From sequence record PP197160.1: 43,930 bases of DNA; one strand, given 5' to 3'. Source of the stretch: Escherichia phage phiHAO78-1. The notes under the pieces were generated by a model, which was not told the DNA's origin, did not search any database, and saw nothing but the letters and a program-made list of their open reading frames with translations. The translations under genes were made by a program, and so were the position numbers. Below are positions 7,125 through 43,475 of this stretch, piece by piece; the stretch's first letter is position 1, and the number at the start of each line of letters is the position of its first letter.

Positions 7125-10100
7125 TTAATCGTCTCCGAAGTTATTGATGATAGCTCGCGTAGGTGCAAATTCCTGGATTAACGGGACCTGCTTAGTGAAG
7201 GTCTGGATATCCATATTCCCAGTAGCCAGGGCTTGCACCGCACCCAACAGCCCGGTGACGTAGCCCATAGACGCCAGAGAATGACGCGGAGAGTCCCCAG
7301 TGAAGATATCCTGCAGAAGCGAGATACCACCGATGGCACTCATACCCATAACCGATTCAGCGATAAGCTTCTGAGTGTCGGCCTCTTTGCCGTCCATACC
7401 GTGCTTCGCCATAGTAGCGAGTAGCATCAGTGGGAACTGGTACGCCATAATGTGCGCCACCCCAATCCACCCCGCATCGTTTAGCTCTCGGCGGAGAATC
7501 TTGTTGGTGGCAGCCAGGGCAAAGCTCTGGTAGCCGACGATTACTTTACCAATAGGGTTAAACTGTGCGAAGTGTGAGGTCTCACCGGTACGTACTTGCT
7601 GCACCAGGTAATCCATCATCCTGGTACCTACCACCTCAATTTGCATTTGCAGGTCCGGCTGGAACATAGCGCCCGGGTTAGCCTTATTGGCAGCAATAGC
7701 ACGGTCTGCAACATCACGGGTAAGCCCGAAGCGCTCCAGACGTTTGAATGCCTCTGCATCACCTCTGAACATCTGCTTGAGTTCATCAGCAACAATCCCG
7801 GAGTTCAAGTTAACCTGCAGTCTGTGCACCATGCTCATACCGTTAACATGCCTAGCGGCCTGCCCAACGTTCTGCGTGACGTTAAACCAGGAAGCCTGAC
7901 GGGTCAGGTCCAAGTTATCGTCTGCGTAGGTATTCAGCCAGCGGAAGCGCATCTCCTTCTGGATACTGCCACGTAGGATTGTATCCAGGCGACTAGCCAT
8001 GTCCGGATTACGAATAGCTACGGCACCCTCTTTAAACCAGGGCTGCTCCCGCATACTGCGGAGTACTCGGGACATACCAAACTCTTTCATAGCTAAGGCT
8101 GTATCAGTAAGCTGATACAACCCGGAGTTCTTGAGCATGGTGGCATTAGCCATGTTACCAGCTGCACGCAACAGGTCCGGCATCTGCCCGGCATCGGCCG
8201 GCGCTCCACCCAGGATAAAGTCAATGGCGTCATTAACGGTCTTCTCCCACTTGCCTGAATCGGCTAAGGCGTGTTTGGACTCATTAATCATCGTCTCCAG
8301 CATCTTGAGGTCAGATACCCCAGCATAAGCCATACCCACACGACCCGACATACGATTCGTATAACCGTGCATTACCTTGGCTACATCAGTATCCATCAGG
8401 TCCTGCATACGCATAGCCTGACCATCCACGATATACTCTTTATCCATGTTGAAGCGGGTACGTTGACGCAGGTTCCGAGCAGGGGATGTAGCACCAGATT
8501 CCCGGACGTTACCCGCCAGGAAGCTCTGGATTGCACTTTCATCTACACCAGCATTACGCATAGCCATGACTACTTCATCATTACCCATACCGTTGATAAG
8601 CTGCTTCCACATAGGGCCGGAAGCAGCGGCGCGACCATTGTAGATACCATCAACCATTTCCTTAGCGACGCGCTGAACAACCTCAGGCTCCATAGATGGG
8701 TACACATCACGCAGTGCCTGGCGGAACAGATCCCGATAGTTGTCCAGAGAGAGACCATTTGCAATACCCTGGCGCATCTTATCGTAGCTGTACTGGCGCG
8801 GGAAGTAGTAGTCCGATTTAATCAGAGTACCGTCACCCACCAGCCCGGCAGCAGTCATGTGATCGTGCCACTTACTGGCCCAGCCGGAGTTGCGGTATGC
8901 CTCTACAAGTGGAACCAAGTCAGAGTCCGGCAGGGGTACAGGGCGCCCATTAACCTCGGCACTGTATGCGGAGTCCAGATAACGGCCCAAGCGGTCTTCT
9001 AAGTCAGCGCGAGCTGCTCGGAAGTTGCTACGATGGAAGAAGCGGTCCGTGAAACCTACACCTTTGGCCTTGAGGGCACCAAGTATAGCATCCTCAACTA
9101 CACTGGCACTAGCGTCCATCTCCAACGTAAGGTTACGCTTGAAGTCCACCACAGACGGTTTACGACCGCCTACAGCAGTAGCGTCAGATACTAATAAGCG
9201 TGCCAGGTCCTCACTACCCTCTGCGATGTTATCATACAGAGAGAACATAGTGGAGAGCTTACGCTTAGCAGCGTCCATCATAGCCTGAGCTTTCAAGGCC
9301 TCATGCTTAACCGATGTATCCGCCAAGTCCTGGAAGGCCTCACTCCGGAAGCTCTGAGCTTGGTCTGCGTAGTCCTTTGCGGTCCACTTGACAGCGTCCT
9401 CGTATGCGTCCAGAACATCCTCCAGGGCCGAACCCTTGGTACGGACCCCAAGCGCATTCATGATGTACTCACCAATCTGGCGGAGCATGCTTTTACCGGT
9501 AGGGGATTTAGTTCTAGAGAGGTATTCCACCCACTCAGGGCTGTCGCCTAGTCCGGCCAGCATCTCGTGCACGTCACTAGCATAATACTTAAATTTATCA
9601 CTAAGAGTTGAATCTGCTGCTATTGCAGCGCGCACTTCTTCCAGCTTACTAGCAATTTCAGGATTCTGCTTGATGGCTCTGGTGGTGGCAGCGTGAACCA
9701 GCTCGTGCACTGCTACTCGGCTAGTGTCTGCATCCATAGCACGCAGAGCATCCCCGGCAGTAGTCCAGGTACTTCCGTTCGCTTTCTTAGGGGCACGTAA
9801 AGATATAAAACCCCTATCAGTTGTTGATGCTGGTGAAAATCCGTAGTGACTACGGTTAGAAGAACCGGCCACCAGTTTAAAGTCGATATCCCGTACTGCA
9901 TCACCCAGGGTGTCCAGGATAGCCTTCTGACCTTTAGATAAGTGTTCAGAGGTCTTGAGGAAACGGACTACGTCCTGCGCTTTCATGTTAACAGCAGCAG
10001 TGTTATTCCGGCGAACTTGGATAGGTTCATCCAGTACCTTAGTGAGTATTGTGTCCCCTTCTCCTACTCCTGTAACATTAGCATCCCTTGCTGTACGAGT

Positions 10101-10823
10101 TGTGGGCGCGTCCGGGTCAAACATAGGCTCACGCCCAGTGCGTGCCTTTGCTGCTGCTTTAGCAGCCTTAGACATGTCCCAGAGCTGGTCTAGTCCAGCT
10201 ACCCCTGCTACCAGAGCAGTGACTGCCGCAGACTGTCCCAATTGATCTTGTGCATAGACAGCTGTACCTACATCCGCTGCACGGATGGCAGTACGCACTG
10301 CTAAGCCAGCACGACCAGCGATACCTGCCGCTGACATCGGAGCCAGTATAAATGGAGCATCACCAGCCAGTGCACCGGCGAACCCAGCTACCGTGTTATC
10401 AGACATCCGACGGTCACGGTCACGCTGTTCTAGCATAGCTTGAATGCGATAATTATAATCATCCAGGGATACCGCCCCGTGCAAGTAGTCAATCTCTTCC
10501 TGATTAGGAGTGTAGAGTTTAGCCCGGGAGTCAGTGCTTAATTGCTTCTTAGCATCAAAACCCTGCTCTGGAACAAAGGCTGGGGAGGAGGCCTTTCTAA
10601 TAGCCGCAGCTATAATGCTATTACCAACCCCAGCAGCAAAGCTTTCCCCTGCCGACGTCGCCGGGGTCTTAGCCTGGGCCAGGATAGATGAACGCTGTAG
10701 TGCATTCAGCCCATCATCTCCTGCGTCATTCCAATCTACGCTTGCAGGCGCAGATTTAAGTGTTGCGCCCTTAGCAGAATCCTTTTCCTGTGGATTCGGT
10801 TCTTGGTTCAGAAACTGAGCCAT
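7125..10823 (-). CDS. Internal virion protein D (T7 gp16-like ejection protein)
   Basis: 1232-aa ORF in the gp16 position between internal virion protein C and the fiber gene. Confidence 0.8.
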   Translation of the reverse strand: MAQFLNQEPNPQEKDSAKGATLKSAPASVDWNDAGDDGLNALQRSSILAQAKTPATSAGESFAAGVGNSIIAAAIRKASSPAFVPEQGFDAKKQLSTDSRAKLYTPNQEEIDYLHGAVSLDDYNYRIQAMLEQRDRDRRMSDNTVAGFAGALAGDAPFILAPMSAAGIAGRAGLAVRTAIRAADVGTAVYAQDQLGQSAAVTALVAGVAGLDQLWDMSKAAKAAAKARTGREPMFDPDAPTTRTARDANVTGVGEGDTILTKVLDEPIQVRRNNTAAVNMKAQDVVRFLKTSEHLSKGQKAILDTLGDAVRDIDFKLVAGSSNRSHYGFSPASTTDRGFISLRAPKKANGSTWTTAGDALRAMDADTSRVAVHELVHAATTRAIKQNPEIASKLEEVRAAIAADSTLSDKFKYYASDVHEMLAGLGDSPEWVEYLSRTKSPTGKSMLRQIGEYIMNALGVRTKGSALEDVLDAYEDAVKWTAKDYADQAQSFRSEAFQDLADTSVKHEALKAQAMMDAAKRKLSTMFSLYDNIAEGSEDLARLLVSDATAVGGRKPSVVDFKRNLTLEMDASASVVEDAILGALKAKGVGFTDRFFHRSNFRAARADLEDRLGRYLDSAYSAEVNGRPVPLPDSDLVPLVEAYRNSGWASKWHDHMTAAGLVGDGTLIKSDYYFPRQYSYDKMRQGIANGLSLDNYRDLFRQALRDVYPSMEPEVVQRVAKEMVDGIYNGRAAASGPMWKQLINGMGNDEVVMAMRNAGVDESAIQSFLAGNVRESGATSPARNLRQRTRFNMDKEYIVDGQAMRMQDLMDTDVAKVMHGYTNRMSGRVGMAYAGVSDLKMLETMINESKHALADSGKWEKTVNDAIDFILGGAPADAGQMPDLLRAAGNMANATMLKNSGLYQLTDTALAMKEFGMSRVLRSMREQPWFKEGAVAIRNPDMASRLDTILRGSIQKEMRFRWLNTYADDNLDLTRQASWFNVTQNVGQAARHVNGMSMVHRLQVNLNSGIVADELKQMFRGDAEAFKRLERFGLTRDVADRAIAANKANPGAMFQPDLQMQIEVVGTRMMDYLVQQVRTGETSHFAQFNPIGKVIVGYQSFALAATNKILRRELNDAGWIGVAHIMAYQFPLMLLATMAKHGMDGKEADTQKLIAESVMGMSAIGGISLLQDIFTGDSPRHSLASMGYVTGLLGAVQALATGNMDIQTFTKQVPLIQEFAPTRAIINNFGDD

Positions 10824-10852
10824 ATTATCTCCTAAAAGAATTTTGATAAGGG

Positions 10853-42369: not shown

Positions 42370-42686
42370 GCGTTATTTCTTACTACTTACTTGGTCTTCT
42401 GTATAGCACTTCCTCGTGCGCCTTAATTTGTAGTGTTCCCACTACCACAGGTTGAAGCCTTTTAATGTGCTGCTAATCACCTAGCCTGTGTTGTTCTATA
42501 CTGCTTGTTGGCTTTACTCCGCAATCGCCCTCGCGCCTTTCTGTCACCGCGAAATGTGTAGTGACTTGTACCGGAGGAATCGGCCCCTTATCTGCGTTAA
42601 GGTTCGCAATCTGCAATTTGCACTTAGCTGATTAGTATAGTGTCTACCCGCCTACAATCCTTGTGGGCTTCTTACTGCTGGGATTC

Positions 42687-42715
42687 AATCTAGCTTATGT
42701 CCTTCGCGGTGTCAA
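42687..42715 (-). promoter_or_regulatory. Candidate sigma70 early promoter
   Basis: Minus strand TTGACA (42710..42715), 17-bp spacer, TAGATT (42687..42692), in the non-coding leader upstream of the early genes. Confidence 0.5.
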
Positions 42716-43475
42716 CTCTTTTTATTGAGTATCTAACCCTTCACACCATCTAGCTTTAATCCGGTGGAGTCTCCCGACTCTACCCCGTTCAGCACCTCAG
42801 CGCCTCCCGGTGATTGAACTATAGCGCCAATAAACCAAAAGAAGCAAGCACTTTTTTAAACTTTTTATCACTGTGAGCAAAAAGGGTAAGCAGGGCAAAC
42901 ACTTAGCCAATGCTTCCATTCTAGGGATAGCTCTAGAGATAGCCCAATACTAGCCAATGCTACTCAGTGCTAACCAATGCTAACCAACACTACACGGCAC
43001 TACATATAGCAGAACGTAGCGACGTAACGTCAGTGAAGGAGCGTAGTGAAGCGGTGACTGTGTAGGTAATGCTTACTCCCTACGGTCGTAATATAGGGCA
43101 TTACTAGGGGATACTAGTGAGTAGTAGTGAGTAGTGTGTATGTAGTGCCCTAAAACCCTCCTACTCCTGTAACATCATTTCCAAATAGCTTTCGAATGAA
43201 AGTAAGCACAAGGGATAGCGCTGGATAGTGTGGTGTGGTGGAAGTGCGCCCTAGTGGGGAGCGCGCAGCGTAGCATATAATCGGCACAATGTAAAGCACT
43301 AGCGATAGCACTAGGGATAGCACCACGGCGCACTGGGCGGCCCACTCGGCACATACTATGGCCCACTACTGGCCCACTGGGCGGCCCGCTAGAGGTCCGC
43401 AAAATAAGCAAGGCAGAGCGCACCCCTATGGCCCACAGAGAGCACGCAGAGCACGCAGAGATAACCCCAGTGCCT

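Follow-up and report, generated by a model that had tools for sequence, protein, structure and literature searches.

A thrice-repeated motif in phage phiHAO78-1 matches the strong promoter of the KP34 RNA polymerase

A 17-mer repeated three times in the genome of phage phiHAO78-1 coincides with an already characterized promoter of the KP34 type, and we consider it highly probable that each copy serves as a promoter for the T7-type single-subunit RNA polymerase (RNAP) that the phage itself encodes. The repeat is real but ordinary, and its kind is already known. The window, i.e., the whole stretch of 43,930 nt that was analyzed, is a complete KP34-like podovirus genome of the genus Drulisvirus, with every gene on the minus strand (Table 1). 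Four lines of evidence carry the assignment: identity with an experimentally defined promoter, the presence of the cognate polymerase, synteny, and the co-variation of motif and enzyme among relatives.

Identity of the repeat with the KP34 promoter

The plus-strand 17-mer TCCTACTCCTGTAACAT has exact copies at 10062-10078 (site A), 22118-22134 (site B), and 43159-43175 (site C) in the whole window, as the preliminary description had reported. Its judgment that this number exceeds chance is borne out by shuffled sequences: only 0.11 matches are expected even with 3 mismatches permitted, and none of 100 shuffles yielded four matches at that threshold. The further claim of conserved flanks holds in part, since the 20-mer TAATGTTACAGGAGTAGGAG is exact at site A alone, whereas sites B and C are each one base off. 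Read on the minus strand, which is the coding strand, so that all three copies share the orientation of the genes, each site is T(A/G)ATGTTACAGGAGTA followed by GGA (with flanks, gcTAATGTTACAGGAGTAGGAGaa at site A, ttTAATGTTACAGGAGTAGGAAtg at site B, and aaTGATGTTACAGGAGTAGGAGgg at site C).

Lu et al. (2019) defined 5'-T(A/G)ATGTTACAGGAGTA-3' as the strong promoter of KP34 RNAP by in vitro transcription (PMC6834552), and all three sites of the window fit it exactly, at all 16 positions. The KP34 copies (coordinates in Table 1; PMC6834552) are the same 16-mers (S1 twice, S2 once) with the same GGA start region. They also occupy the same three positions, one at the left end, one immediately past the RNAP gene, and one within the gene for the large internal virion protein; these are the locations that had been correctly assigned to the three copies of the window. 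In KP34, 5'-RACE placed a transcript start at nt 22213, from the promoter at 22197-22212; S2 is active in vitro, and the 14-nt common core alone is much weaker than the 16-mer (PMC6834552). The original reading as phage-RNAP promoters is thus supported by the experimental demonstration of the same sequence as a promoter in KP34, the evidence for activity being that of KP34 RNAP on the identical sequence in vitro. At the sequence level, the GGA that follows GGAGTA at all three sites provides the initiating G.

The cognate enzyme is present as well. The window RNAP aligns along its length to T7 RNAP, its Pfam RNA_pol match has an E value of 6.6e-90, and its residues 703 to 706 are SAVL, as in KP34. 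The promoter sequences of the two phages do not differ; their host ranges and accessory genes do. The closest records, KPV811, AV102, and Minorna, are ∼95 to 97% identical in the RNAP region. KP34-like promoters had previously been catalogued in 135 genomes, and the literature searched yielded no in vivo transcript start map for any Drulisvirus.

Table 1. Features of the phiHAO78-1 window that bear on transcription by the phage RNAP
Feature	Position	Strand	Remarks
Predicted left-end promoter (site C), S2 type, TGATGTTACAGGAGTA	43162..43177	-	Same as KP34 S2, nt 475-490
Predicted main promoter (site B), S1 type, TAATGTTACAGGAGTA	22121..22136	-	Same as KP34 nt 22197-22212
Predicted intragenic promoter (site A), S1 type	10065..10080	-	Same as KP34 nt 33721-33736, in gp48
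Single-subunit RNA polymerase gene, 822 aa	22142..24610	-	Pfam RNA_pol, RPOL_N; 95% identity to KP34 RNAP
Homologue of the KP34 "weak promoter," ACTTTGGACATCCGACAAGT, 1 mismatch	22170..22189	-	Within the 3' end of the RNAP gene
Homologue of KP34 gp38, 147 aa, first gene past the main promoter	21674..22117	-	
Internal virion protein gene, 1232 aa, homologue of KP34 gp48, holds site A	7125..10823	-	
Rho-independent terminator stem past the capsid gene block	17158..17185	-	KP34 terminator with 3 mismatches
Host sigma-70 early promoter, TTGACA, 17 nt, TAGATT	42687..42715	-	KP34 host promoter 931-959 is of the same type
Conserved divergent copy, TAATGTGATATGAGTAGGA	30512..30530	-	Candidate weak or middle promoter

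Sites, conservation, and co-variation with the polymerase

Site B takes up the 24 nt that separate the RNAP stop codon from the ATG (22117) of the gp38 homologue, a protein without a Pfam match. The promoter keeps to this homologue even in relatives that have an extra gene after the RNAP gene. The predicted +1 here is position 22120, a G located 3 nt ahead of the ATG, just as the mapped KP34 start lies 3 nt before gene 38, which begins at 22216. The AGGAG of the motif had been described as the Shine-Dalgarno sequence of this gene, a role that it does not have on transcripts begun at the site. Because the KP34 start found by 5'-RACE is the first G after GGAGTA, AGGAG could serve in this way only on read-through transcripts from upstream. 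With a leader of 3 nt, the first gene would lack a Shine-Dalgarno sequence on transcripts begun at site B, which is unusual and counts against the promoter reading, our best explanation. Within the 3' end of the RNAP gene, the conservation of the KP34 weak-promoter homologue may just reflect the coding for GTLDIRQV.

Site C is non-coding, lies ∼0.5 kb from the inferred physical left end and ∼450 nt upstream of the sigma-70 early promoter, and has its predicted +1 at the G at 43161. Site A, with a predicted +1 at the G at 10064, encodes NVTGVGE, as had been proposed, and is in frame in the internal virion protein ORF. Inside the motif, one of seven third-codon positions varies, versus 36 of 59 in the flanks (P = 0.04, six genomes), a conservation partly confounded by protein coding.

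These contexts bear on the idea that translation or coding alone accounts for the repeat, through either a cassette of Shine-Dalgarno sequence plus spacer or the NVTGVGE peptide, and that it has no role as a DNA signal. Site B indeed adjoins a start codon and contains AGGAG, and site A lies in the reading frame of a conserved protein. Yet a start codon follows only one of the three copies, site C encodes nothing, the synonymous positions of site A are frozen except for a concerted change at -7, and the sequence drives transcription in vitro. This idea is therefore extremely unlikely, and we retain the promoter reading.

The preliminary description had called for a comparison with related genomes, and this comparison bears out the motif: all eight complete Drulisvirus genomes examined carry it at the three syntenic sites. 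A scan of IMG/VR added 25, 21, and 19 contexts for the three site types, about half of the 16-mer matches there being unrelated coding repeats or chance. In one sub-lineage, all three copies change together from A to C at -7, and the specificity loop of the RNAP changes too. [quoted passage not shown] In fHe-Kpn01, all three dispersed copies have the C, which in the intragenic copy turns ACA into ACC, a synonymous change. The four genomes with C at -7 may form a single clade, and the co-variation could then be one evolutionary event.

The same comparison weighs on whether the repeat is bound or cut by some other phage protein, for instance one that initiates replication, takes part in packaging, or acts as a homing endonuclease. 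A small number of scattered copies that includes one close to a genome end would fit such a site, and relatives contain several HNH-type insertions. Gains and losses of HNH genes, however, leave the motif positions unchanged, the motif co-varies with the specificity loop of the RNAP, and a sufficient function, that of a promoter, has already been demonstrated. We give this possibility almost no weight compared with promoters for the phage RNAP.

A fourth, divergent copy agrees with the motif at 16 of 19 bases, with mismatches at -10, -8, and -6, and is kept at a syntenic intergenic site in all eight genomes. It was considered as a sigma-70 promoter, but none of the consensus matches overlaps this copy. 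At the corresponding place in LIMElight, a putative phage promoter is annotated.

From the KP34 precedent, we infer the activity and start sites of the promoters in phiHAO78-1 and a division of labor among the three copies. The RNAP would recognize T(A/G)ATGTTACAGGAGTA, read on the minus strand, as a duplex of 16 bp, with its specificity loop reading about -11 to -7, would melt the DNA just upstream of the start, and would start the RNA with the G of GGA. The structural-gene transcript would be launched from the copy after the RNAP gene. The copy in the internal virion protein gene would allow re-initiation downstream of the terminator, which separates two late promoter domains, and the re-initiated transcript would serve the tail fiber, terminase, lysis, and tailspike genes. 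From its place upstream of the host promoters, the left-end copy would let the phage enzyme transcribe from the genome end; its analogue in T7 is phiOL, a left-end promoter upstream of the host promoters.

Resemblance to the phiKMV-group nick consensus

The motif had alternatively been read as a site of localized single-strand nicks in virion DNA, a function that could replace or accompany that of a promoter. The resemblance on which this suggestion was based is real: the 8-mer CCTACTCC is common to the motif and to the phiKMV-group nick consensus, CGACxxxxxCCTA/CTCCGG according to Kulakov et al. (2009) as quoted in PMC3517423 and PMC3604761. In relatives with C at -7, such as fHe-Kpn01, the complement of the promoter is CCTACTCCGG, the full 10-nt core. 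Nicks are present in at least one Drulisvirus, and the nick consensus also has few copies per genome.

Strand, sequence, and position nevertheless speak against a nick site. The LUZ19 consensus lies on the mRNA-like strand at four of four sites, and GGAGTAGG is never on that strand, whereas the CCTACTCC of the window is on the template strand and hence inverted relative to the genes. The CGAC half is missing, no copy of the window motif comes within 3 mismatches of the full consensus, and scanning eight genomes for that consensus gave nothing better than matches with 3 mismatches, at the level of chance. The nick motif of LUZ19 is a distinct element from the real promoters of that phage. The sole reported nick of fHe-Kpn01, at nt 7873, which is also the only one mapped in a Drulisvirus, is not near 483, 22074, or 33614 and falls in another conserved repeat. 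A nick function at the three sites is thus unsupported, and we regard it as very unlikely beside the promoter reading. The recurring confusion of "phage promoter" with "nick site" in the phiKMV supergroup is thereby settled; the GenBank record of LUZ19 still labels nick motifs as promoters.

Prophage cassettes, applications, and related systems

Exact 19-nt copies of the promoter, some with A and some with C at -7, also occur in lambdoid prophages of Klebsiella and E. coli. A T7- or K11-type promoter look-alike (P1) precedes each copy by ∼70 nt, and ∼70 nt past the copy come a strong ribosome-binding site and an ORF for a hydrophobic peptide of 36 to 38 aa; one such cassette lies at nt 22164-22573 of MK448231. 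No sigma-70 promoter is in sight in the cassette, the peptides and the region have no Pfam, PADLOC, or Rfam match, and two scans of GTDB species representatives gave no match to the cassette. Exact P1 strings were confined to the cassettes, and lytic phage contigs had none, which marks P1 as a look-alike rather than a copy of a promoter with its leader. The prophage small RNA svsR, considered as the cassette, sits at the 3' end of cI and is unrelated. One could speculate, and we think it rather unlikely, that the promoter is a recognition signal in a phage-prophage arms race. The cassette would then be a suicide or exclusion device fired only by the RNAP of an invading KP34-like or T7-like phage, and the concerted A-to-C switch at -7, with the matching change of the specificity loop, would have allowed some Drulisviruses to evade such traps. 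The cassettes are the chief interesting by-product of this work and stand outside the finding itself.

For the window, the result is the annotation of three promoters and one candidate, and the late transcription units of a new KP34-like phage are set out. This should be of use in annotation and phage engineering, and the KP34 in vitro transcription reagents would be expected to work on the phiHAO78-1 promoters. The A/SAVL and C/TIMR combinations would be a natural RNAP/promoter specificity pair that could give orthogonal transcription tools. Besides the promoters, we note a candidate Drulisvirus nick motif, with putative sites in the window at 35804-35826 and 21471-21493, and prophage cassettes that may form a class triggered by phage RNAP. 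These by-products, the specificity pair included, could matter more than the promoter annotation.

Among related systems, LIMElight, whose promoter differs (ACGTTATAGAGAGA), lacks both CCTACTCC and GGAGTAGG; the motif is therefore specific to Drulisvirus. The RNAP promoters of LUZ19 and the genus Phikmvvirus are GgtTATGTCACacACAnnGG (Putzeys et al. 2024, PMC10914365). The experimentally mapped LUZ19 promoters share with those of the window an ATGTYAC block and a GG start at the same spacing, and they are similarly few, with one directly after the RNAP gene and one in the homologous internal virion protein gene. They differ at positions -7 to -3, which are of the CACA type in LUZ19 versus AGGAG in the window; moreover, the LUZ19 copy near the left end is antisense whereas that of the window is sense, and the intragenic copies lie in non-homologous codons. 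A paper on the KpnP RNAP was considered as a parallel and set aside as not relevant, the enzyme being T7-like.

With the class III and phiOL promoters of T7, the motif shares a short duplex promoter, a homologous single-subunit RNAP, and a start at G. In both phages, one promoter lies at the left end, ahead of the host promoters, and late promoters lie in the structural region. It differs in copy number, with three copies in the window versus about 17 in T7, and the RNAP gene of the window, unlike that of T7, is located at the end of the DNA-metabolism block. By sequence, the motif is not a member of the T7 group, as it shares nothing beyond TAAT with the 17- to 23-bp consensus of T7, T3, SP6, or K11 (..CACTATAG..), but it would work like a T7-group promoter.

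The repeat, its setting and the promoter of phage KP34

The 17-mer TCCTACTCCTGTAACAT has three identical copies on the plus strand (sites A, B and C; see the table), and chance is a poor explanation for them, as the preliminary description held, given that shuffles predict 0.11 matches even at three mismatches. Since the minus strand carries all long ORFs of the window, the motif is best read as its reverse complement, and GGA stands directly 3' of the 16-mer at each of the three sites. A 20-mer conserved flank had also been claimed; it is exact at site A and not at B or C. The placements described for the three copies are correct. 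Site B occupies the 24 nt that separate the RNAP gene (22142-24610; Pfam RNA_pol) from the ATG of the next gene at 22117, site A is coding and encodes NVTGVGE in frame within a 1232-aa internal virion protein ORF, and site C lies in the non-coding left-end leader, ~0.5 kb from the inferred left genome end, with a sigma-70 early promoter ~450 nt downstream of it.

Of the 255 phage records matched by the RNAP region, nearly all belong to the genus Drulisvirus (KP34-like); KPV811, AV102, Minorna, IK_ECO1 and SFN6B rank best (94-97%). At the protein level, the RNAP shares 95% identity with its counterpart in the Klebsiella phage KP34. The KP34 enzyme has been purified, and the transcripts that follow its gene were mapped by 5'-RACE to nt 22213, which led to the definition of a strong promoter, 5'-T(A/G)ATGTTACAGGAGTA-3', with copies at 475-490 (TGATG form), 22197-22212 and 33721-33736 (Lu et al. 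2019, PMC6834552). In vitro, the two forms were equal in activity and their 14-nt common core was much weaker (same study). The 16-mers of the window are identical to those of KP34, are likewise followed by GGA and occupy the same three positions, so that the finding is the rediscovery of a characterised element; by 2025, a survey had listed 467 KP34-like promoters across 135 genomes. The three sites are thus best read, as first proposed, as promoters for the phage RNAP.

The window ends (1-94 and 43839-43930) repeat each other, identically over 76 nt and with only ~87% similarity over another ~18 nt; the repeat contains a plus-strand run of 14-16 C that differs in length between the two copies, and the physical left end of KP34 aligns ~230 nt inward from the window's end. 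The overlap and this alignment point to a complete, reverse-oriented genome in what looks like a slightly permuted assembly with a collapsed terminal repeat. On the non-coding stretch that leads from the inferred terminal repeat to the left-end promoter, a 10-nt sequence (minus strand CTCTGGGAAG) stands in 3-4 tandem copies at 43466-43515, alongside further short direct repeats. Elsewhere, a 68-nt segment is present in three copies with 62-81% similarity (30279-30346, 34817-34884 and 36938-37005), each inside a small ORF (30098-30490, 34603-35040 and 36703-37170). These ORFs probably represent paralogous genes for HNH homing endonucleases, since relatives have annotated HNH genes at comparable places.

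Coordinates of the promoter copies and related elements (window coordinates unless another sequence is named; L-numbers are handles of retrieved comparison sequences, L001 being KP34 and L128 the phiKMV-group phage LUZ19)
Feature	Coordinates	Strand	Sequence or remark
Site A	10062-10078	minus-strand reading	TAATGTTACAGGAGTAGGAG
Site B	22118-22134	minus-strand reading	TAATGTTACAGGAGTAGGAATG
Site C	43159-43175	minus-strand reading	TGATGTTACAGGAGTAGGAG
Divergent promoter copy (putative)	30512-30530	minus	TAATGTGATA(T/C)GAGTAGGA; syntenic conservation
Palindromic repeat, primase gene	35804-35826	minus	
Palindromic repeat, gp39 homologue	21471-21493	minus	
LUZ19 nick-consensus sites mislabelled as promoters	3130-3149, 6753-6772, 14413-14432, 24765-24784		RefSeq NC_010326 (L128)
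Prophage cassette	L164:10700-11110	minus	
Prophage cassette	L192 (MK448231 nt 22164-22573)		
Prophage cassette	L201:2520-2840		E. coli strain 126
Prophage cassette, further loci	L019, L071, L134, L147, L168, L183, L193-L200, L202		

Co-variation with the polymerase and the nick-site alternative

In eight complete Drulisvirus genomes, picked for a similar RNAP region or for their place in the literature and without regard to the motif, the three syntenic sites are all occupied (8/8). In Minorna, AV102, NTUH-K2044-K1-1 and fHe-Kpn01, where the RNAP gene is followed by an inserted HNH or other gene, the promoter remains beside the gp38 homologue. A scan of IMG/VR returned the same three context classes as in the window, each many times. 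Among six genomes, third-codon positions vary at 1 of 7 inside site A vs 36 of 59 in its flanks, and the one that varies is promoter position -7.

Position -7, counted from the transcription start (+1), is A or C by lineage, and in fHe-Kpn01 the three dispersed copies are all TTACCGGAG, not TTACAGGAG. Across 11 genomes, with no exception, A at -7 pairs with SAVL at RNAP residues 703-706, TG at 211-212, Q at 231 and V at 325, and C at -7 with TIMR, NC, K and I at these positions. Residues 703-706 align with Q758-I761 of T7 RNAP and R694 with R746, all within the promoter specificity loop. In IMG/VR, the C form turned up in 15 contexts of the post-RNAP class and 9 of the left-end class, and no mention of its string was found in the literature searched. 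From their sequences, -7 A/SAVL and -7 C/TIMR look like RNAP/promoter combinations that are naturally orthogonal.

That three sites changed in concert, and that the part of the polymerase which reads them changed to match, is expected of a promoter and not of a site of localized nicking of the phiKMV-group type, which had been offered as an alternative. The resemblance noted earlier to the nick consensus, CGACxxxxxCCTA/CTCCGG (quoted in PMC3517423 and PMC3604761), is accurate: CCTACTCC is common to both, and relatives with C at -7 share even CCTACTCCGG. However, the CGAC half is absent from the window motif, and the orientation is inverted, the four consensus sites of LUZ19 lying on the mRNA-like strand whereas the 8-mer of the window lies on the template strand. 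Moreover, in LUZ19 the nick motif is distinct from the real promoters and unrelated to transcript abundance, and the sole reported Drulisvirus nick, at nt 7873 of fHe-Kpn01 (a PhageTerm peak and S1 nuclease), falls away from the promoter copies. On present evidence, we reject the nick reading. Of note, the RefSeq record of LUZ19 labels the four nick-consensus sites 'phage-specific promoter sequence' and is without annotation of the promoters found by cappable-seq (motif at 21115, 21312, 35590 and, antisense, 751).

The fHe-Kpn01 nick lies inside the primase-gene copy of another repeat, CCTCTGCA(C/T)CTGCAGATGCAATT, which includes the 16-nt palindrome TGCATCTGCAGATGCA and has exactly two copies, in the primase gene and the gp39 homologue, in 8/8 Drulisvirus genomes. 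This repeat may serve in nicking or in protein binding, and is the place to look for any nicks in the window phage. At 40903-40934, the minus strand carries an exact copy of AGCCTATAGCGTCCTACGGGGCGCTATGTGAA, which includes an inverted repeat; before the strong promoter was defined, it had been put forward as either the phage promoter or a nick site of the Kp34likevirus group (Eriksson et al. 2015).

Copies beyond the three sites

A fourth, divergent copy and its flanks are conserved in 8/8 genomes, in an intergenic position that is syntenic throughout (KP34, 12983-13001). This copy differs from the promoter at -10, -8 and -6, does not track the -7 A/C switch, gave no sigma-70 match and is absent from the promoters reported by Lu et al. 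2019 (PMC6834552); in the comparison phage LIMElight, a putative phage promoter is annotated at the equivalent place. We suggest that the divergent copy may function as a weak promoter or a middle promoter.

Lambdoid prophages of Klebsiella and E. coli likewise contain exact 19-nt promoter copies. These stand between the genes for lysis and those for terminase, on the strand opposite the late operon, within a cassette of one architecture at no fewer than 17 loci. Its first element resembles a T7- or K11-type promoter and comes in five variants. Some ~60-70 nt beyond lies a KP34-type promoter in four variants, with both -7 A and -7 C represented, and three of the four match natural Drulisvirus promoters exactly. 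A 68-71 nt leader carrying a strong RBS (AAGGAGG) and a mostly hydrophobic ORF of 36-38 aa (three families) follow, and these parts combine in shuffled fashion across loci. No sigma-70-like promoter was detected within the cassette, searches of Pfam, PADLOC and Rfam gave no family match, PGAP places no annotation on the ORF, and no description was found in the literature searched. The cassette independently shows that other genomes treat the motif as a transcription signal. That phage RNAP triggers it is our hypothesis only; the cassette may be a suicide or exclusion device set off by the RNAP of an invading phage.

The repeat itself is real, correctly read as a promoter and already known; the leads worth following are the prophage cassette, the RNAP/promoter specificity pair and the palindromic nick-associated motif.

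Transcription layout and its counterparts in other phages

The predicted +1 is a G at 22120 (site B), 10064 (site A) and 43161 (site C). At site B, this start would lie 3 nt ahead of the ATG, as in KP34 (start 22213, gene 38 at 22216), and LIMElight has a similar abutting arrangement. The AGGAG taken earlier for the Shine-Dalgarno sequence of this gene would therefore be upstream of +1 and present only on read-through RNA, and promoter-initiated transcripts would be nearly leaderless, without a Shine-Dalgarno sequence for their first gene. A homologue of the KP34 terminator lies between sites B and A (17158-17185), which suggests that transcription of the tail fibre, terminase, lysis and tailspike genes starts anew at site A. 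The position of site C is like that of T7 phiOL. In LUZ19, promoters mapped by ONT-cappable-seq lie directly after the RNAP gene and, in one case, in the homologous internal virion protein gene (PMC10914365), the same layout as in the window, with a common core, ATGTYAC, and a GG start.
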